DNA from: Escherichia phage vB_EcoD_Over9000
Length of the DNA: 44,583 nucleotides
Strand: one strand, 5' to 3'
Sequence record: NC_073079.1
Part shown: positions 5,079 through 29,747 of the stretch, one piece after another
Numbering within the stretch: the first letter of the stretch is position 1
How the letters are laid out: each line of letters opens with the position of its first letter
Translations under genes and position numbers: made by a program
The notes under the pieces: model-generated
Told to the model about the DNA's origin: nothing
The model's input: only the letters and a program-made list of their open reading frames with translations
Database searches by the model: none

Positions 5079-5843
5079 TTAGCGCGGAATACCGCAAATC
5101 TCGTTGAGAGTTTTCACATCCAGCGCCACCGCCGTGGATTTTGGCTTGTCCGGGTAAGGGATGAATTGCTCAACTTCAGGCCATGCCTTAATCAGCTTCT
5201 TATCGGTATTGTGCATGTCCAGCACACCGGTAACGGTCAACTTGAATGCGTCATACTTAGCACGCAACTCACGGCGGGCCTTGTCGTTACGGTCAAGGCG
5301 CTTGCAGAAGTCATGATCTGCCGGGAAATCCGCACGGCAGCGTGGCTTATAGATCGGCAGCGATTTTCCGTCCTCGTCCACTTCACACACTGAAGCCAAC
5401 ATAACTGTCTCGAACCCCGGAACGATATCGCCGAGATCAGGCGAGAGCTTATTCATATATTTCTCTTCCCAGTATCCGCGATGTACGCGGTATTGGCGAC
5501 CGTCACCGCTCAAGGACAAGATGCGAACATTGCCGCCTGCGTTGATTTCAAAGGTGGCGTCGTAAACGCTGCCGATACCCTTCGGGCGATCTGTGTCATA
5601 GCGATATGTTGCCTTGTTGGTGTATACGCTGACGCTGTACATCTGCGACTGGTCGTCGCGGATTGCCTTGATATGCTCGCGGAGCGCTGCGAACGTGCGA
5701 ATGCCTTCCGGCATACAGTCCAGCGTGATTGCGTACGCCAGGTCGCGAGAGTCCATCATGATTGTTTTGGCTTCGGTAGCGATTTCGTGGTCGCGCAGGA
5801 TGTTAGCCAGGATCTGATTTTTAATGTCTTTCGTCAGTCTCAT
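5079..5843 (-). CDS. hypothetical protein (reverse-strand insert in head module)
   Basis: 254 aa ORF on the opposite strand to all flanking structural genes; ends at a bidirectional terminator (5053-5078); no motif recognised by eye. Confidence 0.6.
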   Translation of the reverse strand: MRLTKDIKNQILANILRDHEIATEAKTIMMDSRDLAYAITLDCMPEGIRTFAALREHIKAIRDDQSQMYSVSVYTNKATYRYDTDRPKGIGSVYDATFEINAGGNVRILSLSGDGRQYRVHRGYWEEKYMNKLSPDLGDIVPGFETVMLASVCEVDEDGKSLPIYKPRCRADFPADHDFCKRLDRNDKARRELRAKYDAFKLTVTGVLDMHNTDKKLIKAWPEVEQFIPYPDKPKSTAVALDVKTLNEICGIPR

Positions 5844-5882
5844 TTTTATGTCCTCATTTTAGGGGCTTTCGCCCCGATTGGT

Positions 5883-6197
5883 TTAGTTGAATTTGATGTT
5901 GCCACCGGTGGAAGTTAAGCGGGCACATACAGCTTCAACGGCATCGACGCACATGAAATCGTTAAAGGCTTCGACCAGGGCGTTTATGAAAGATGCCGGA
6001 ACCAGGCCGCAAGCCGGATTATCGAATGTTGCGGAGTTGATCGCCGCTTTTGCCGCTTCAGAAGCATTCATGCTCTGGCACAGATTCAGCGCTTCCGCGT
6101 TACGCATTGCGTGAAAGGTAAAGGTATTCACTACGGTAGCTTTATTGAAACGGGCCATTGCGGCGTCTACTGGAGTTGCTACGGTCATGTTAGTCAT
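5883..6197 (-). CDS. hypothetical protein (first gene of reverse-strand insert operon)
   Basis: About 105 aa from ATG at 6197 with RBS AAGGAAAAC upstream (reverse strand); the longer ORF start at 6320 lacks an RBS; promoter-like region 6198-6300. Confidence 0.5.
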   Translation of the reverse strand: MTNMTVATPVDAAMARFNKATVVNTFTFHAMRNAEALNLCQSMNASEAAKAAINSATFDNPACGLVPASFINALVEAFNDFMCVDAVEAVCARLTSTGGNIKFN

Positions 6198-24175: not shown

Positions 24176-24180
24176 ATAGA

Positions 24181-24206
24181 AGGGGCCGTATGGCCCCTTT
24201 TTTAGT
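24181..24206 (+). terminator. intrinsic terminator after tail fiber gene
   Basis: AGGGGCC-GTAT-GGCCCCT hairpin followed by TTTTTT; marks the end of the + strand structural block. Confidence 0.8.
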
Positions 24207-24777
24207 TTGAGTTTTCCCAGTCCATTTTGCGCCGCACTAGCGGGCTTTCGTAATACTCCTTCCCATCCACTTCCACTAAGGGCCAGTCATTAACAATGAC
24301 GTAAGGCTCTGCGATATCCTCGATCACGCCGTGCGCGCTATGTTGTCCGAAATCTACGCCCACCAGGATAACCCCGGCAACGCGACGAGTGAGATACTCG
24401 CGAGCGCAACGGGCCTCGACCAGTCCTCGACGTATGCCGCTGGTGGCCTTAACCTCGTAGGTCCAGACGGCATCGATCACATGTTCGCGGAAGTCGGGAC
24501 CGGATTTTACCTTGCGCTTGCCGACCATGATAATATCGCCGCGGTCGATAGTGTTAGCGCTAAACAGGCCGGTACGCATGAGTAAGCCTTGCGGGATACA
24601 GCTACGCCCACCCGTCTGCCCTTCGAGGTACATGCCTGCAAACATTTCGCCCAGCACACCGACGAGTCTGCTTTGCTTGCACGCGTCGGACTTATACCGC
24701 CACTGGTCAAACTCGATGCTTGCGATCATTGCCGCCAGGTGGAATTGTTTACCTGATATTTCATATTCGCCGTACAT
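24202..24777 (-). CDS. hypothetical protein (possible PD-(D/E)xK-like nuclease)
   Basis: 191 aa; RBS GGGGGAT; D...EVK arrangement (GDIIMV ... WTYEVK) weakly suggestive of a restriction-endonuclease-like fold; unverified. Confidence 0.5.
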   Translation of the reverse strand: MYGEYEISGKQFHLAAMIASIEFDQWRYKSDACKQSRLVGVLGEMFAGMYLEGQTGGRSCIPQGLLMRTGLFSANTIDRGDIIMVGKRKVKSGPDFREHVIDAVWTYEVKATSGIRRGLVEARCAREYLTRRVAGVILVGVDFGQHSAHGVIEDIAEPYVIVNDWPLVEVDGKEYYESPLVRRKMDWENSN

Positions 24778-24819
24778 TGTGAATCCCCCATTGCCGCGGG
24801 CCGAAGCCCGCGATTAGTT

Positions 24820-25341
24820 TTATTTCAGCGCGCTACGTACCAGTGTTTTTTCCATGTTGCGGAAGTCTTCCGGCGTCATGAGGATTTTGGACCCGTCTTC
24901 GCCGGTGAGCACGACCATAGGCTGGACGTCCTGGTCTACGACGCCGAAATTGGCGGCTTTGACAGTCTTGCCCGCCGATGCCGAAGGATGCCACGCCCCT
25001 GCGGTGGCGATGGGCCAACCTTTAAGGCTATCGTATTGCGCTGCCGTTGTATCGATCTGAATCTCATCATGCACGGTCATGTAAGACTCGCCCAGCAGGG
25101 CGGCATACGCCACCAGATCCACGATGTTATCTTCCTGGTGCTTACGGTGCTGGCGCACCAGCTTCAGGCAGATCAGGAAGGTCCAGGCTTCTTGCTCTGT
25201 CAGGTCGCGACCGGTAAGCGCGTTAAACACGGCAGCGATTTGCTTAGCGCTGCGCTCCTCTTTCGCGTTGTCATAGCCATTCTCTTTCCCGCGCTGTTCC
25301 ATAGTGGTGGCGGCGTTTTTGCAGTATTCGTATGCTTTCAT
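24820..25341 (-). CDS. hypothetical protein (weak MazG-like helical signature)
   Basis: 173 aa; RBS AAGGAAA; N-terminal helices with EQEAW and EDNIVDLVAYAALL patterns reminiscent of MazG-type NTP pyrophosphohydrolases; speculative. Confidence 0.5.
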   Translation of the reverse strand: MKAYEYCKNAATTMEQRGKENGYDNAKEERSAKQIAAVFNALTGRDLTEQEAWTFLICLKLVRQHRKHQEDNIVDLVAYAALLGESYMTVHDEIQIDTTAAQYDSLKGWPIATAGAWHPSASAGKTVKAANFGVVDQDVQPMVVLTGEDGSKILMTPEDFRNMEKTLVRSALK

Positions 25342-25403
25342 TATGTTTTCCTTTTTAGCGTGGGGCCATATTGCCCCGACGCGTTAACTATAGTGCAACC
25401 AAC

Positions 25404-25874
25404 CTAGTGGTTGCAAGTGAATTTTGCAACGTTTATTGCGTAAATTTTCGGTACCAAATCGCTGCACGCCCGACGAATTGCCGCGATGTTCTTCTCGCAG
25501 TCCTCAATGATGACCAGTTCAGACACGTCCGCGTAGCAGACCATTTTGAACACGGCGCACGCCTTAAACTCTGGCGGCGGGGTGTCGTCCAGCATGTGGC
25601 GCATGAATAACCGGCCTACAGGGAAGACTTCCAGTTGTTTAGCGGTGGTGTCCCAACATTCTCGCTGCCGGTTGGTCAGATACGCGATCTCGAAGCCTTG
25701 CTCTTTATACATGCGCAGTAGCGGCAGCATATCCATGTTCAGGTCTTCGCGGACGTGCGCCTTGTGCCACTTCGCCCAAAAGGTGGATTTAGTTTTTATG
25801 CCAGGCACCAGATCGGCACGCGCATCGCTTGAGCCGTTAATAACGCCATCCAAATCGCAAATCAGTAATTTCAT
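25404..25874 (-). CDS. HAD-superfamily phosphatase (nucleotidase / polynucleotide phosphatase-like)
   Basis: 156 aa; N-terminal LICDLDGV matches the HAD DxDG(T/V) catalytic motif. Confidence 0.6.
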   Translation of the reverse strand: MKLLICDLDGVINGSSDARADLVPGIKTKSTFWAKWHKAHVREDLNMDMLPLLRMYKEQGFEIAYLTNRQRECWDTTAKQLEVFPVGRLFMRHMLDDTPPPEFKACAVFKMVCYADVSELVIIEDCEKNIAAIRRACSDLVPKIYAINVAKFTCNH

Positions 25875-26095
25875 TTTAAGCTCTCAATAAGTGTCTGTCG
25901 GGCGCTTCGCGCAGTAAAGGAGTTGCATACGAAATGGCAACGCCGAGTTATGACAAGCCAACCGGTGAGGTCAAGGCCCATGATGCGTCCGGGATGGGAC
26001 GCGCGCACCACATGATTGCGGCGTGGGTCGATGCAGAAGTCTTTTTGCATTTGGTCTACTACCGCGGGGTCGCGGTCAACGATTAAGATATTCAT
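25871..26095 (-). CDS. small hypothetical protein
   Basis: About 74 aa; stop overlaps the start of the HAD gene (ATGA coupling); overlaps the Dam 3' end by about 20 bp. Confidence 0.3.
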   Translation of the reverse strand: MNILIVDRDPAVVDQMQKDFCIDPRRNHVVRASHPGRIMGLDLTGWLVITRRCHFVCNSFTARSARQTLIESLK

Positions 26096-26561
26096 GTAGC
26101 TCACTCTCGCTCATTATTTCAATTTGTGCGCTGCCGCATGGCGGCGCTTCGTCAAATATTATCAATTGCTGGCACTTGTTATTGCTCGGCCCGACTTCAC
26201 CGGTTACAGCATGTATGAATCGGATCCGCCAGTCCAGAAGAATTATCAGGTTTGCAGTCTTCCTGGCCAGCTTCGCCCACTTCGTCGACGTGTCCTGATT
26301 CAGTAGCATGACCGTCCGGCGTCCGTGCGCTGCGCACTCTACCCACGGCAGCGGATCGGAATACGGCGGATTGCACCACTTCCACCCTTTCAACTCGGAC
26401 CAGTCCACATCAAGCGCGCTGTGTTCCGCCGTGAAGTAACGTGGTAGCAGATGATTGGTGTCGCTTGCCGCCATATCGTAACGGAATCGGTATTTCCGAC
26501 GAAGCGGTTTAAATAAAGCTGGCGGCGTGCGCCAGCTATCTTTTTGCTCATTCTCCGTCAT
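26076..26561 (-). CDS. DNA N6-adenine methyltransferase (phage Dam family)
   Basis: 161 aa; WRTPP...DMAAS...WCNPPYSD matches the phage T1-type Dam family signature including the catalytic NPPY motif. Confidence 0.85.
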   Translation of the reverse strand: MTENEQKDSWRTPPALFKPLRRKYRFRYDMAASDTNHLLPRYFTAEHSALDVDWSELKGWKWCNPPYSDPLPWVECAAHGRRTVMLLNQDTSTKWAKLARKTANLIILLDWRIRFIHAVTGEVGPSNNKCQQLIIFDEAPPCGSAQIEIMSESELHEYLNR

Positions 26562-27006
26562 AGTCGGGATCTATCGCATACAGGGCGGTTTTCTTGCCAC
26601 TGGATAGCACGCGTTGGACTCGGGATAGCTCCGCCCTACTGAGCGGTCGGCTATCGGAATAGTAGCTGCCGTTTGCACGCCACGCTATACGCACCAGTCC
26701 TTTCCGCGGGATCGAAGACTGGCTGCCCTTCGGACGGACGTACTCCTCGGCCAGTTTGCAATGCTCGCGCAGACCTTCGGCAGTGATGCGGTTTAGCGCG
26801 ACGGTGGTTGTGTACCCGGTGCGCTGCATAATACCCATCAACTCATACAGCAGTTCGAAGCGCTCCTCTAACTCCTTGCGCGCCTTCTCCTCGCCTTCAT
26901 AGCTCGCCAGGTAGGTGTCCGCCAGCGCGTTCGCCCGTTCGACCTGTTCGCGGGCTTCGAGGCATTGCGCGGCCCAGTAATTTTTCTCTTCTTGTAAAAT
27001 TTTCAT
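26548..27006 (-). CDS. hypothetical protein (coiled-coil N-terminus)
   Basis: 152 aa; Glu/Lys/Ala-rich helical N-terminal half; promoter-like ATTGGTTGCAT copies upstream (27056-27085). Confidence 0.5.
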   Translation of the reverse strand: MKILQEEKNYWAAQCLEAREQVERANALADTYLASYEGEEKARKELEERFELLYELMGIMQRTGYTTTVALNRITAEGLREHCKLAEEYVRPKGSQSSIPRKGLVRIAWRANGSYYSDSRPLSRAELSRVQRVLSSGKKTALYAIDPDYDGE

Positions 27007-27087
27007 CGTGTTGTCTCCAGGTATTAAAAAAGGCGTCCAAACCGGACACCCTTAAGATAATGCAACCAATATGATTATGCAACCAAT

Positions 27088-27411
27088 TTACGAATAAAAA
27101 TTTGGGTCGCGTGCAACGTCTACTAGATACAGGTTACTCATGCGATTGCCGTAGTGCCCCGGTGTGCGCTGGCGGCACACAACGGCGAAGCCTGGTGGAA
27201 TTGTATTGCCCGTCTCGATAATCCACGCCACGCGTGCGCCAGACAGCGTCTTGCCGTTGTATTCGATGCGCGTGCCACCATCGGCAGTGTTAAGGTTGCC
27301 AATCTTACATCCTGTGGACTTCAGGCGAATGACACCGGTCTTGCTGTCGTAGGAAAAAAGCTGATTGGTCATTGCCACTGAAAAGTCGATTGCGTCGAAT
27401 GCAGTATTCAT
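27088..27411 (-). CDS. HNH_3-like small protein (possibly degenerate homing-endonuclease relative)
   Basis: 107 aa; layout GK...ARVAWIIETGNTIPPGFAVVCR...HYGNRMSNLYLV parallels the HNH_3 pattern GK..HRLxW...G.IP.G..IDHI.G...DNR..NLRL, but canonical His positions appear substituted; by-eye alignment. Confidence 0.4.
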   Translation of the reverse strand: MNTAFDAIDFSVAMTNQLFSYDSKTGVIRLKSTGCKIGNLNTADGGTRIEYNGKTLSGARVAWIIETGNTIPPGFAVVCRQRTPGHYGNRMSNLYLVDVARDPNFYS

Positions 27412-28103
27412 TTTAAATTTTCCTCGTTAACCGCTATCGCGAAGCCGCGCGGGGTGAGTGAGCGGATTAATTTTGTACGAGCGGATTTACCACCGAGGCG
27501 ACTATACTGCTTCGAGTACCCTTTTTCAACGAAAACAGGTTTCTTCTCTGGCATACGGAAGCCGTTTCCAGTCCATAAGCAGGTCAGCTTCGGATATGAA
27601 TCGCGGGCGTTGATGTATTCAGGGAACAACGGATGTACGTCATCCTCCGGCAGATATCCCCCATACTCCCACGGGTCGAACGAGTGATCAGGCTTGCGCC
27701 ACTGGGTGGAAAGCACACTGCGCGGATTCTCAATCATATATGGCACTTCGAAGAAGTCACCCAGGTAAGCGGCGATCTTCGCGGTTCGCACCGCCTTAAG
27801 CTGAAAGGCGGGGTCTTTTGCACGCTTGCGCGGGAAAGCTGGCGCGCCGCTCACTGCCAGATCCGTACACGGAGGGAACGCATAGATTATATCCGGCGTA
27901 CCGAAATCGCCATTCATCGCGCGGTCCACGAAGTCCAGGTCGATAAACTCATTGCGATACCGTATTCCGCGACCATAAATCCGGTAGTCAAGGTACGACC
28001 CGTGATCGGCTTCGGAGTAGTTAAAACAGTAGCACTTATGCCCCATCTCGGCAGCACGCTCAATCATCAAGCCGCTGCCGTCAAACAATGACCAGATTAT
28101 CAT
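27408..28103 (-). CDS. DNA cytosine-5 methyltransferase-like protein (compact, no obvious target-recognition domain)
   Basis: 231 aa; motif I SLFDGSG, motif IV AFPPCTDLAVSG (Pro-Cys catalytic dipeptide), motif VI-like IENP; unusually short for a C5-MTase. Confidence 0.65.
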   Translation of the reverse strand: MIIWSLFDGSGLMIERAAEMGHKCYCFNYSEADHGSYLDYRIYGRGIRYRNEFIDLDFVDRAMNGDFGTPDIIYAFPPCTDLAVSGAPAFPRKRAKDPAFQLKAVRTAKIAAYLGDFFEVPYMIENPRSVLSTQWRKPDHSFDPWEYGGYLPEDDVHPLFPEYINARDSYPKLTCLWTGNGFRMPEKKPVFVEKGYSKQYSRLGGKSARTKLIRSLTPRGFAIAVNEENLK

Positions 28104-29524
28104 TTGCGCGCCTTCTTAGCTTTCATGTATTCCATCAAGTCGTCCTGAATGTCTCGCTTACTGTCGCGACGCTCGGCGACCAATTCGTCCAGTGTCCCGC
28201 GAGCCTGGATAATGTAGACGAATACTGGTCGAGGGTGTCCGGCTTGCATCTGGCGAACCGGCCCGATACGTTCAACGATCTGCGAAAAATGCTCAAAGTT
28301 CCATGTATCGGAGAAGATTGCCAGGTGATGACCGCCGTCCTGCAAGTTAAGGCCGTGGCCTGCCGATGCCGGGTGCGCAAACATGATGGGGATCTCGCCC
28401 CTGTTCCATGCTTCCATATCCTTATTGCCCTGCTTACCTTTACCCAACGCAACGCCGTGCGGGAATTTCTTCTTGAGACGTGCCAGATCATGCTTGTACT
28501 GATAGGCAACGAGCAACGGTGCGCCGTTCAACTCCTCCACGATACTTTCCAGCGCGTCCAGTTTAGCGTCGTGAATTTTCACCCATTCGTCGGTGCGCTC
28601 GCCGTCTTCGTCGACCTTATACACGGCCCCGGAAGCAAGCTGAAGGCACTTAATAGTCTTCGAAGCAGCGTTCGCCGCCTCCACCGTTCCGCTTTCCAGT
28701 TCGGCAAATAGCTCCGCTTCGAATTGGTCATAAATCTTGCGGGCTTTTTTCGGCAGGTCCACAACAACCGGCGTATAGATTGGCTTGTCACACCCGAAGT
28801 ATTCAGCCGCATCAACGGTTAGCGACACGTCGGACAGTCGTTGTTGTATTTCTTTCTCGGAGTTCTTAAGCGGGGCGTGCTGCATCGTGAAGCTGCCAGG
28901 CTTAACAGGCTTGCTAATAAACCAGCGGTCCGTGAACGCCTTATAGCTACTGCCGAGACGTTCGCCGCCGTCGACAAACCACGTCTGACCCCATAGGTCT
29001 TTCAGCCCGTTCGGTGCGGGTGTGCCAGTCAGGTTAATCCAGCGCTTGACGTGCTTATGTGCAATCGCTGCCAGCGCACGGGCGCGCTTACTTCCCTGCT
29101 TGCTTCTATAGCCTTTCAGCTTAGTGGATTCATCGGCAACAACGACCGTAAAGGGCCACTCGTCGCCGCAATACTCTACAAGCCACTCAACCACATCATA
29201 GTTAACACAAACCACGTTAGCGTCGCTCTCAAGCGCAGCGATGCGGTCCTTCTCTGGTCCGGTGCCGTCTACTACCAGCAGGGCAGGGAAGCGCCATTTT
29301 TCTTGCTCCGGAGGCCATGTACCGGACGCAACGCGCAGCGGGGCCAGCACCAGTACGCGGTCCTCCTGGTTGGATAGGATGCCGGTCTGGAACATTTTAT
29401 TCAGCGCCCACATAGTCGCGCCGGTTTTACCCGACCCCATTGTCGCCCAAATATTGCAGCGCTTATGCTTGAGGATGAACGCGGTTATCAACTTCTGATA
29501 TTCGCGACGTCGGAAACGTGCCAT
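28100..29524 (-). CDS. SF2 DNA helicase (SNF2/DEAD-like)
   Basis: Walker A GSGKTG and DExx-type box VVVADESTKLK; start placed at ATG 29524 (MARFRR...) to avoid an 86-bp overlap with the upstream small gene; the ORF-track start is 29614. Confidence 0.8.
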   Translation of the reverse strand: MARFRRREYQKLITAFILKHKRCNIWATMGSGKTGATMWALNKMFQTGILSNQEDRVLVLAPLRVASGTWPPEQEKWRFPALLVVDGTGPEKDRIAALESDANVVCVNYDVVEWLVEYCGDEWPFTVVVADESTKLKGYRSKQGSKRARALAAIAHKHVKRWINLTGTPAPNGLKDLWGQTWFVDGGERLGSSYKAFTDRWFISKPVKPGSFTMQHAPLKNSEKEIQQRLSDVSLTVDAAEYFGCDKPIYTPVVVDLPKKARKIYDQFEAELFAELESGTVEAANAASKTIKCLQLASGAVYKVDEDGERTDEWVKIHDAKLDALESIVEELNGAPLLVAYQYKHDLARLKKKFPHGVALGKGKQGNKDMEAWNRGEIPIMFAHPASAGHGLNLQDGGHHLAIFSDTWNFEHFSQIVERIGPVRQMQAGHPRPVFVYIIQARGTLDELVAERRDSKRDIQDDLMEYMKAKKARK

Positions 29525-29528
29525 ATCT

Positions 29529-29747
29529 TTATTCCGCCTTTTTCCAGACTTCGGTTTCACTGTTCCAGTTCCTTTTTGTAGCGTCGTAGTTGGTGGCGTG
29601 TCCGATGTGCACACCCGTCGCCCGGAAGCTCTTAAATTTTTGCCAGCATACCGTCAACGGCAGCGGGTCATTCATGCCCGCGATAAACCATACTCGATCG
29701 CCCGGTTTACATTCGCCCAGCTTGGTGAGTCGGTAATGATCTTTCAT
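29529..29747 (-). CDS. small hypothetical protein
   Basis: About 72 aa from ATG 29747 (RBS GGGAGAC); ends 4 bp before the proposed helicase start. Confidence 0.4.
   Translation of the reverse strand: MKDHYRLTKLGECKPGDRVWFIAGMNDPLPLTVCWQKFKSFRATGVHIGHATNYDATKRNWNSETEVWKKAE

Follow-up and report, generated by a model that had tools for sequence, protein, structure and literature searches.

The Dcm protein of the phages K42 and KarlJaspers (Bas06) is a trigger of the retron Ec86/Eco1. K42 Dcm raises 5-methylcytosine (5mC) on Ec86 msDNA, as determined by LC-MS, and mutation of either C of the CCTGG site in the msDNA abolished triggering; its target site CCWGG was deduced from these msDNA mutants and not from a methylome (bioRxiv 10.1101/2023.08.16.553469). 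A second phage protein, Ksap1, triggers the Klebsiella defence protein KpAvs2 and is bound by it, and natural Ksap1 variants can escape KpAvs2 (PMC11564622). Phages that seemingly lost part of Dam, a gene assigned as Dam by gene order, remain viable (PMC11564622). In the BASEL study Dhillonvirus phages were comparatively restriction-sensitive, in contrast to the deazaguanine-modified Queuovirinae, and among the related Drexlerviridae restriction resistance did not simply follow from the methyltransferase genes of the phages.

The window, i.e. the whole stretch of 44,583 nucleotides that was analysed (NC_073079.1), is the DNA of Escherichia phage vB_EcoD_Over9000, a Dhillonvirus (HK578-like) coliphage. 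The block studied here (positions 24202-28103, Table 1) is delimited precisely by the stop codon of the last minus-strand gene at one end and by the start codon of the gene for a 231-aa protein at the other. It makes up the far end of the early operon for replication and recombination in an HK578-like coliphage, and is already annotated and ordinary. In the operon PolA, VRR-NUC and an SNF2-family helicase are followed by the block and then by a bidirectional terminator, which separates the operon end from the convergent tail-fibre gene. The true start of the helicase is probably an ATG that lies some 30 codons downstream of the mechanical ORF start; its PHROG 62 match begins at residue 27 and relatives annotate a 1425-bp gene. 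The genes that a first-pass annotation had placed in this span were confirmed by their ORFs and by codon differences from relatives, and two ORFs that it had overlooked, those of Ksap1 and of a 152-aa protein, were found between them. Gene reality was tested by comparing synonymous with non-synonymous codon differences against three relatives, which showed purifying selection on the genes of the 231-aa, HAD, 191-aa and HNH-like proteins; the ORFs of the block are real genes. Escherichia phage SM_S24 shares 97% identity with the block, and at least 80% of the block is covered in 149 of the 157 matching phage records, nearly all of them Dhillonvirus.

Table 1. Features of the block and its borders in the window.
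Feature	Coordinates	Strand	Remarks
Bidirectional terminator	24178..24201	.	G+C-rich hairpin; T runs and terminator scan matches on both strands
191-aa orphan protein	24202..24777	-	E44...D81...E108-x-K110 signature; PHROG 10558
DUF6378-domain protein, 173 aa	24820..25341	-	Pfam PF19905 1e-9, above cutoff
HAD-superfamily phosphatase, 156 aa	25404..25874	-	D7xD9, T67, E124-D125
Ksap1 homologue, 74 aa from ATG at 26095	25871..26095	-	mechanical ORF reaches GTG at 26104
Dam-family N6-adenine DNA methyltransferase, 161 aa	26076..26561	-	NPPY at residues 64-67
152-aa protein, helical charged N-terminus	26548..27006	-	PHROG 10530 2e-89, labelled 'DNA ligase'
HNH-like protein, 107 aa	27088..27411	-	own ATG overlaps Dcm stop codon (ATGA)
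Dcm-like C5-cytosine DNA methyltransferase, 231 aa	27408..28103	-	short phage family PHROG 757; catalytic C79, E125, K172
SNF2-family helicase (context)	28100..29614	-	directly upstream of block; Pfam SNF2-rel_dom 8.6e-11

The 231-aa protein had no match in Pfam, NCBIfam or PDB sequence searches, and PF00145 was not significant. A structure search with its AlphaFold model (AF2, pLDDT 90.8) returned C5-cytosine methyltransferases only, and the best matches were DNMT3 enzymes. The catalytic domains of DNMT3A and DNMT3B share 13-17% sequence identity with it; unlike the phage protein, these are eukaryotic CpG readers that form oligomers and carry regulatory domains. The residues F7, G9 and G11 (F7xG9xG11), P78-C79 and E125-N126-P127 are invariant across the family, which together with the fold confirms the motifs I, IV and VI seen earlier. 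The impression that a target-recognition domain is missing did not hold up, since residues ∼135-203 form a well-predicted, compact insert of ∼65 residues at the place where this domain belongs. Conservation across the family is 0.79 for the insert (135-185) versus 0.68 for the catalytic core, which argues for one shared specificity in the family. Compared with E. coli Dcm and M.EcoRII (PF00145), the protein is about half the size and has this insert instead of a large target-recognition domain, whereas the chemistry and, presumably, the target site are shared.

The protein from K42/KarlJaspers belongs to the same PHROG 757 and shows 54% full-length identity (236 aa versus 231 aa here). Its residues C82, E128 and K175 align to C79, E125 and K172, and the conserved insert is common to both. 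It comes from another phage family (Drexlerviridae) and another gene neighbourhood; activity of the Dhillonvirus enzyme is predicted. As judged from its residues and model, the 231-aa protein has all parts of a C5-cytosine methyltransferase in minimal form: C79 would be the nucleophile, E125 would be supplied by the ENP motif and the compact insert would replace the usual large target-recognition domain. By analogy with the homologue, its most likely product is 5mC at CCWGG sites. A truncated enzyme acting on a non-canonical substrate, as proposed before, is not needed to explain a protein whose full-length homologue has the same catalytic residues and makes 5mC on DNA. Synonymous to non-synonymous differences in the gene were 31-55 to 2-3 against the three relatives (55 to 2 against SECphi18), and short Dcm-like genes were found in 1510 very diverse phage genomes.

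The assignment of the 161-aa protein to the Dam family was borne out by Pfam PF05869 (6e-36, 124 bits versus a cutoff of 28) and N64-P-P-Y67. TIGR01712 scored 87.7 bits, under the equivalog cutoff of 97.05, and the PADLOC orphan methyltransferase profile matched at 3e-11. It shares NPPY with the phage Dam family (PF05869/TIGR01712) and lies at the short end of its size range. From what is known of this family, the enzyme most likely makes m6A at GATC.

Between Dam and the HAD phosphatase lies the Ksap1 homologue (PHROG 10685, 2e-41), which shares 82% identity with SECphi18 gp51 across 74 aa and retains L47 and T50; in SECphi18 the gene has the same position. Synonymous to non-synonymous differences were 14 to 13. 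Binding to Avs2 has been demonstrated for homologous Ksap1, and the Over9000 copy is a natural variant whose recognition by KpAvs2 is putative.

The HNH-like protein was assigned by PHROG 99 'HNH endonuclease' (1.9e-15) as the sole basis, and gave no match to Pfam, including the HNH models, or PDB. It holds one His only (H86), which together with PHROG 99 supports the earlier view of an HNH-like protein with substituted catalytic His residues; it is probably catalytically inactive and would bind DNA without cutting it. It is fixed across the genus and was found in 160 records, each of them Dhillonvirus-like or eiAU-like; synonymous to non-synonymous differences were 20-35 to 2-10 (three relatives). 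The 152-aa protein had no match in Pfam, NCBIfam or PADLOC, and its gene evolves fast (21 to 24 against Oekolampad). The label 'DNA ligase' given to it in some records is unsupported, as the sequence has no KxDG motif.

The HAD phosphatase had been recognized correctly: its catalytic motifs were confirmed and it matches PHROG 415 'polynucleotide kinase' (1e-36). The best Pfam match, Acid_phosphat_B (4.8e-5), was under the cutoff, and TIGR01662, TIGR01533 and the class B acid phosphatase 2i33 (PDB, 0.058) matched weakly. It is plausibly a nucleotidase or polynucleotide 3'-phosphatase, and the gene is conserved at 29-37 to 3-5 (three relatives). The 173-aa protein for which a weak MazG-like pattern had been noted belongs to DUF6378, and a MazG relationship is putative. 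This DUF6378 protein consists of a four-helix N-terminal domain (1-87) and a conserved C-terminus, joined by a linker whose length varies; its AF2 model is of low confidence (pLDDT 47.7). It also matches PHROG 9871, 474 and 1167, and the N-terminal domain occurs in 373 phage records, mainly as stand-alone proteins of ∼85 aa. In the 191-aa protein the residues E44, D81 and E108-x-K110 remain invariant even at 24% identity, which supports the suggested PD-(D/E)xK arrangement, but no Pfam or PDB profile matched; the protein is a plausible candidate PD-(D/E)xK nuclease. Its family is very rare, with seven clusters among 5.8 billion proteins and 14 representatives among 1.84 billion, and the gene showed 36-55 to 4-9 differences (three relatives).

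In other phages the block genes occur apart. Of the block genes, Kagunavirus JSSK01 contains the Dcm-like one alone, which adjoins the helicase, and in phage 9NA this is also the only block gene. In KarlJaspers 7 kb separate the Dcm-like gene from Dam, and the other six block genes were not found. In Edwardsiella phage eiAU-183 the slot after the SNF2 helicase holds gp17, 39-40% identical to the HNH-like protein, followed by a C5-methyltransferase and Dam, while the five remaining block genes are absent from that stretch. Its Dam is orthologous (40% identical to the 161-aa protein), but its C5-methyltransferase, a canonical PF00145 enzyme of 330 aa, shows no BLAST similarity to the 231-aa protein, indicating that the slot keeps the function and not the protein. 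Of the anti-restriction or DNA-modification module proposed earlier, the two DNA methyltransferases thus stood and the coherence did not, as the genes are scattered or absent outside Dhillonvirus. A link of the HAD, DUF6378, 191-aa and HNH-like proteins to DNA modification was not supported. The six non-methyltransferase genes are independent accessory genes and not steps of one pathway.

Site statistics were determined for the phage genome. CCWGG occurs 153 times compared to 67 expected from dinucleotide shuffles, but with a maximal-order Markov model its count is 0.93 of the expected one. Enrichment of CCAG/CTGG together with depletion of CTTGG/CCAAG is the pattern that very-short-patch repair by the host would leave, and the CCWGG excess therefore does not point specifically to methylation by the phage. 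GATC was observed 164 times (167 expected). Many 6-bp palindromes are strongly avoided, to the point of near absence (observed/expected, counted on both strands: GGCGCC 2/42, AAGCTT 0/32, GGGCCC 0/26). GGCC and hexamers containing CCGG or GCGC are avoided too, whereas CCWGG and GATC are not.

Taken together, the block is probably best explained by two small orphan methyltransferases that protect the phage's own DNA at CCWGG and GATC, carried with six accessory genes late in the early operon. That all eight genes form one nucleotide-processing or hypermodification pathway yielding a modified base in virion DNA, with the methyltransferase-like enzyme acting on a non-canonical substrate and the HAD and 'MazG-like' proteins reshaping the nucleotide pool, is very improbable. 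It conflicts with the 5mC made by the 54% identical K42 Dcm, and the block genes do not co-occur outside the genus. No hypermodification enzyme was found in the scanned ORFs of the reverse operon, and none of the scanned genes resembles CmoA or CmoY, the phage-encoded neighbours in described CmoX systems. The palindrome avoidance implies DNA exposed to type II enzymes, and the restriction sensitivity reported for Dhillonvirus, unlike Queuovirinae, likewise speaks against the hypermodified bases considered before.

A real DNA C5-methyltransferase with a specificity other than CCWGG, such as a shorter site, a relaxed one or a preference for DNA in single-stranded or hairpin form, appears improbable. 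The recognition insert has only ∼65 residues, the best structural matches read a 2-bp site and the K42 evidence concerns a hairpin in single-stranded msDNA; against this, a change of either C of CCTGG abolished triggering, the insert is highly conserved between the two phage proteins, and avoidance of GGCC and of CCGG- and GCGC-containing hexamers would be unexpected if most cytosines were protected. It is somewhat less unlikely, but still unlikely, that both enzymes are active with a main job other than anti-restriction. Dam has established roles in phage packaging and mismatch repair, and full methylation of the fast-replicating phage DNA might avoid interference by host MutH, SeqA or mismatch repair; the enzymes might also set the timing of packaging or of gene expression, like Dam in P1. 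The usual hosts carry Dam and Dcm, the Dcm-like gene is under very strong purifying selection across the genus, which suggests that the enzyme is of use on ordinary hosts, and restriction phenotypes are not simply linked to methyltransferase genes (BASEL study). However, Dcm-like genes in so many diverse phages fit generic protection better than phage-specific regulation, and phages apparently without part of Dam, as identified by gene order, are viable.

Self-protection by the two methyltransferases is the conventional, best-supported and most likely role; we infer this role, as well as the target sites CCWGG and GATC of the two enzymes and what the other proteins do. On common laboratory hosts, which are Dam+ and Dcm+ themselves, the phage copies look redundant. 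The block is already known and represents no new DNA-hypermodification pathway. The two enzymes would act on phage DNA that has just been replicated, and could keep progeny DNA fully methylated if replication outruns host Dam and Dcm or if the host is without them. Full methylation would protect from EcoRII-type and DpnII/MboI-type restriction, the price being that cytosine methylation of this kind is known to trigger the retron Eco1/Ec86.

The eight minus-strand genes at the distal end of the early replication operon were compared with sequenced phages. The 3.9-kb block shares 97.3% identity with Escherichia phage SM_S24 and 90-94% with dozens of Dhillonvirus (HK578-like) coliphages, and at least 80% of it is covered in 149 of the 157 matching phage records. 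The annotated relatives SECphi18, Oekolampad and BMA1 share the gene order, and genes of relatives already carry the labels 'Dcm-like C5 cytosine methyltransferase', 'Dam-like N6-adenine methyltransferase', 'putative phosphatase' and 'putative homing endonuclease'. Therefore, the block is a core and known part of a well-sampled genus. Several stop and start codons overlap, which indicates one tight operon. Upstream of the block, the same operon encodes PolA, a VRR-NUC protein, an Enc34-type single-strand-binding protein and a DUF2800/PD-(D/E)xK exonuclease.

Features of the block and its borders in the window
Feature	Coordinates	Strand	Remark
SNF2 helicase	28100-29614		directly precedes the block
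C5-methyltransferase-like protein, 231 aa	27408-28103	-	
HNH-like protein, 107 aa	27088-27411	-	
Unknown protein, 152 aa	26548-27006	-	
Dam, 161 aa	26076-26561	-	
Ksap1, 74 aa	25871-26095	-	ORF between Dam and HAD genes; overlooked in the first-pass annotation
HAD protein, 156 aa	25404-25874	-	
DUF6378 protein, 173 aa	24820-25341	-	
Unknown protein, 191 aa	24202-24777	-	
G+C-rich hairpin	24178-24201		terminator score on both strands; end of the block, facing the convergent tail-fibre gene

Selection was measured as the ratio of synonymous to non-synonymous codon differences versus three relatives. Ratios of 55:2, 31:2 and 35:3 were obtained for the C5-methyltransferase gene, 37:3 for the HAD gene, 49:7 for the gene of the 191-aa protein and 23:2 to 35:10 for the HNH-like gene. 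Unlike these neighbours, which are under strong purifying selection, the genes of Ksap1 (14:13) and of the 152-aa protein (21:24) evolve fast. All eight ORFs are real genes.

Some differences from deposited records were observed at the borders and within the block. The mechanically called SNF2 helicase ORF (504 aa) begins with a GTG and exceeds the 1425-bp gene of relatives by ∼30 codons, and its PHROG match begins at residue 27; the true start is probably an internal ATG. Many relatives, among them Oekolampad, EC115 and L-h 1M, have a further gene of 243 bp (80 aa, no family; 5803-6045 of the compared relative locus) between the genes of the 152-aa and HNH-like proteins, where the window has an 81-bp gap at 27007-27087. 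One record of 35 kb that bears the name of a Campylobacter jejuni phage (MG065648.1, 'Campylobacter phage A144') is 93.9% identical to the coliphage block, and the Dcm-like gene is held by 36 'Campylobacter' records. Such records probably stem from coliphages and are mislabelled or contaminants.

The first-pass annotation had described the 231-aa protein as C5-cytosine-methyltransferase-like, with motifs I, IV and VI. Indeed, these motifs could be confirmed in alignments of 32 and 50 sequences, in which F7, G9 and G11 of motif I (FxGxG, the SAM-binding loop; in register with motif I of DNMT3B) and P77-P78-C79-T80 of motif IV, which holds the Pro-Cys nucleophile, are invariant. E125-N126-P127 of motif VI is likewise invariant, and the family thus carries ENP in place of ENV. 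The protein matched PHROG 757 ('DNA methyltransferase') at 2e-82, and precomputed PF00145 matches were present on three homologues. The protein itself had no match in Pfam even at E≤10 and none in NCBIfam or PADLOC, and no PDB sequence was matched significantly, either by the sequence on its own or by the family profile, which reached DNMT3B at E 1.2. The identity of the protein was settled only by structure prediction. A confident AlphaFold model, based on 50 homologues, reached a pLDDT of 90.8 and a pTM of 0.89, and all 48 Foldseek matches at E≤1e-3 were C5-methyltransferases. The protein is thus predicted to have a C5-methyltransferase fold. The short Dcm-like family to which it belongs was found in 1510 phage records and in 2886 clusters of the protein collection, and almost all of its members are 225-245 aa long.

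Such a short enzyme had appeared to lack a target-recognition domain and had been proposed to act on a non-canonical substrate. The model does not bear out the former. Between motif VI and a C-terminal RSLTPRGF motif it places a ∼65-residue insert (∼135-203), which is well predicted and highly conserved. Over residues 135-185, the mean majority fraction is 0.79, with 15 of the 51 positions invariant, compared with 0.68 in the catalytic core. This insert, a candidate recognition domain, is much smaller than the recognition domains that bacterial C5-methyltransferases have between motifs VIII and IX. In classical C5-methyltransferases the recognition domain is the variable part, and the conservation of the insert, where classical enzymes vary, argues for one specificity across the whole short Dcm-like family.

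The proposed non-canonical substrate became unnecessary, because a homologue is already known to make 5mC on DNA. The 231-aa protein is 54% identical to the 236-aa Dcm-like protein of KarlJaspers (Bas06) (BLASTP E 1e-86, residues 2-231 aligned). The retron Ec86 study used phage K42, which is 95% identical to KarlJaspers, and K42 escapers of the retron had a disrupted 711-bp Dcm gene (bioRxiv 10.1101/2023.08.16.553469). In the same study, expression of K42 Dcm increased 5mC on msDNA as measured by LC-MS, the quadruple mutant C82A/E128A/K175A/K176A was inactive, and defence was lost when the CCTGG site of the msDNA was mutated (bioRxiv 10.1101/2023.08.16.553469). This Dcm-retron mechanism is also cited in a later paper. 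C82, E128 and K175 of K42 Dcm align to C79, E125 and K172 of the 231-aa protein. By analogy, the family most likely methylates DNA cytosines at CCWGG, the specificity of K42 Dcm being derived from msDNA mutants and not from a methylome. For the 231-aa protein, the conserved insert and the lack of CCWGG avoidance in the genome speak indirectly for this site.

The Dam protein scored 124 bits against Pfam PF05869 (cutoff 28.1) and has the catalytic motif N64-P-P-Y67, as the first-pass annotation had stated; against TIGR01712 it scored 87.7, under the equivalog cutoff of 97.05. Its product is presumably m6A at GATC, the specificity known for the family.

Site statistics were determined for the whole window (1-44583), with palindromes counted on both strands. 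GATC occurs 164 times versus 167 expected and is not avoided. CCWGG occurs 153 times, whereas dinucleotide shuffles predict 67; relative to a maximal-order Markov model, it reaches 0.93 of expectation. It is likewise not avoided. CCAG/CTGG is enriched 1.38-fold and CTTGG/CCAAG is down to 0.30 of expectation, which in this lytic phage genome resembles the pattern expected from very-short-patch repair by the E. coli host. The CCWGG excess was therefore downgraded as evidence of methylation by the phage. Strong avoidance was seen for many 6-bp palindromes: GGCGCC (2 seen vs. 42 expected), AAGCTT (0 vs. 32), GCCGGC (2 vs. 33), GGGCCC (0 vs. 26), AGGCCT (0 vs. 19), GCATGC (0 vs. 18) and CAGCTG (4 vs. 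28). CTAG and GGCC are at 0.38 and 0.66 of expectation, respectively. These counts fit DNA that meets type II restriction enzymes and hence has no global hypermodification, yet is without selection at Dcm and Dam sites. In the BASEL study, Dhillonvirus was described as comparatively restriction-sensitive, and methyltransferase genes had no simple link to restriction resistance in related Drexlerviridae.

It had further been suggested that the genes form one anti-restriction or DNA-modification module. The block is not such a module, since in the other phages compared the genes are apart or absent. Kagunavirus JSSK01 has only the Dcm-like gene of the eight, adjoining an SNF2 helicase gene, and phage 9NA also has only the Dcm-like gene of the block. 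In KarlJaspers, 7 kb separate the Dcm-like gene from the Dam gene, and the other six genes were not found. The only recurring arrangement that could be identified is in Edwardsiella phage eiAU-183 (1352-4882), where a helicase, a homologue of the HNH-like protein, a C5-methyltransferase and Dam follow one another in this order, as a mirror of the Dhillonvirus slot. Its Dam is orthologous to that of the block, whereas its C5-methyltransferase is a canonical 330-aa PF00145 enzyme without BLAST similarity to the 231-aa protein and is non-orthologous. The function has thus been replaced at a conserved position, and what the slot keeps is the function 'C5 methylation plus N6 methylation' rather than a pathway. 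Hypermodification was not indicated either. A CmoX-type cytosine C5-carboxymethyltransferase is recognized by phage CmoA (carboxy-SAM synthase) and the CmoY ligase encoded beside the methyltransferase homologue (PMC12783734). Neither CmoA or CmoY nor any base-hypermodification enzyme was detected in a Pfam scan of the 19 minus-strand ORFs of the reverse operon. The first-pass observation thus holds with corrections and its interpretation in part: two DNA methyltransferases are encoded in the block.

The HNH-like protein matched PHROG 99 at 1.9e-15. Pfam gave no HNH, HNH_3 or other match and its family profile retrieved nothing from the PDB; the homologue gp17 of phage eiAU weakly matched an I-HmuI NUMOD-like model (0.0019). 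The catalytic histidines had been described as substituted, and the protein indeed contains a single histidine, H86. Placed against the HNH_3 consensus, and not by a profile alignment, the position of the catalytic histidine (the general base) would be taken by Cys, Arg or Gln. The gene is fixed in all Dhillonvirus records, while a homing endonuclease would be sporadic. The HNH-like protein is probably a domesticated, non-catalytic DNA-binding protein. For the neighbouring 152-aa protein, the label 'DNA ligase' in public records was rejected, as Pfam and NCBIfam searches gave no match.

Ksap1 (KpAvs2-stimulating protein 1) is 82% identical over 74 aa to SECphi18 gp51, and its position between the Dam and phosphatase genes is shared. 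SECphi18 gp51 is a 74-aa, Dhillonvirus-specific and dispensable protein that directly binds and activates Klebsiella Avs2 (PMC11564622). By gene order, the gene upstream of Ksap1 referred to in that paper would be Dam. The fast evolution of Ksap1 fits recognition by Avs2, and a comparable pressure may act on the 152-aa protein. The papers on RAZR, TgvAB and E. coli HS phages, in which SECphi18 is mentioned, contained nothing on this block.

The HAD phosphatase motif reported earlier was borne out, with motif I (D7-L-D9), T67 of motif II and the acidic pair E124-D125 of motif IV all present and a match to PHROG 415 at 1e-36. Matches to Pfam, NCBIfam and PDB were all sub-threshold; since this includes Pfam and NCBIfam, no subfamily was assigned. 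The paper on the m6-dAMP-sensing PUA-Cal-HAD defence contained nothing that would connect this defence with the HAD protein of the phage.

The 173-aa protein, for which a weak MazG-like pattern (all-alpha NTP pyrophosphatase) had been noted, has DUF6378 as its sole significant family. An AlphaFold model from a 23-sequence alignment stayed at a pLDDT of 47.7, with no more than four helices as its secondary structure, and the family profile had no match in the PDB. The N-terminal domain of the protein was found in 373 phage records, in most of which it makes up a whole protein of ∼85 aa; phage homologues are labelled 'hypothetical' or, often and wrongly, 'phosphofructokinase'. Between this conserved domain and a conserved C-terminal motif, VVLTGEDGSKILMTPEDFRNMEKTLV, lies a linker of highly variable length, and homologues range from 130 to 199 aa via in-frame insertions and deletions.

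An exhaustive HMMER search of 1.84 billion proteins identified 14 representatives of the family of the 191-aa protein at E≤1e-3, an unusually low number for a core gene of a common coliphage genus. A possible PD-(D/E)xK arrangement had been noticed in this protein. E44, D81 and E108-x-K110 are invariant in the 14 sequences, down to 24% identity, which supports a candidate PD-(D/E)xK protein; no member of the family had a Pfam, PADLOC or PDB sequence match.

The block is already known, as over 150 deposited Dhillonvirus genomes contain it with annotation, and as a discovery it carries little weight: a close homologue of its oddest gene is known to methylate DNA and trigger retron Ec86, and another of its genes has been published as the Avs2 trigger Ksap1. 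A far-reaching joint reading would take the ∼230-aa Dcm-like family as the smallest known sequence-specific DNA C5-methyltransferase (5-bp site, 65-residue insert, perhaps a DNMT3-like dimer), possibly with the conserved, translationally coupled HNH-like protein as its DNA-binding partner in Dhillonvirus and eiAU-like phages, and the 191-aa protein as a new, extremely rare PD-(D/E)xK nuclease family; taken together, this is considered unlikely. The public labels 'DNA ligase', 'phosphofructokinase' and 'HNH endonuclease', the last on a protein with one histidine, are corrected here. In addition, a large family of phage C5-methyltransferases is invisible to Pfam and NCBIfam, and its minimal methyltransferase scaffold could interest enzymologists.
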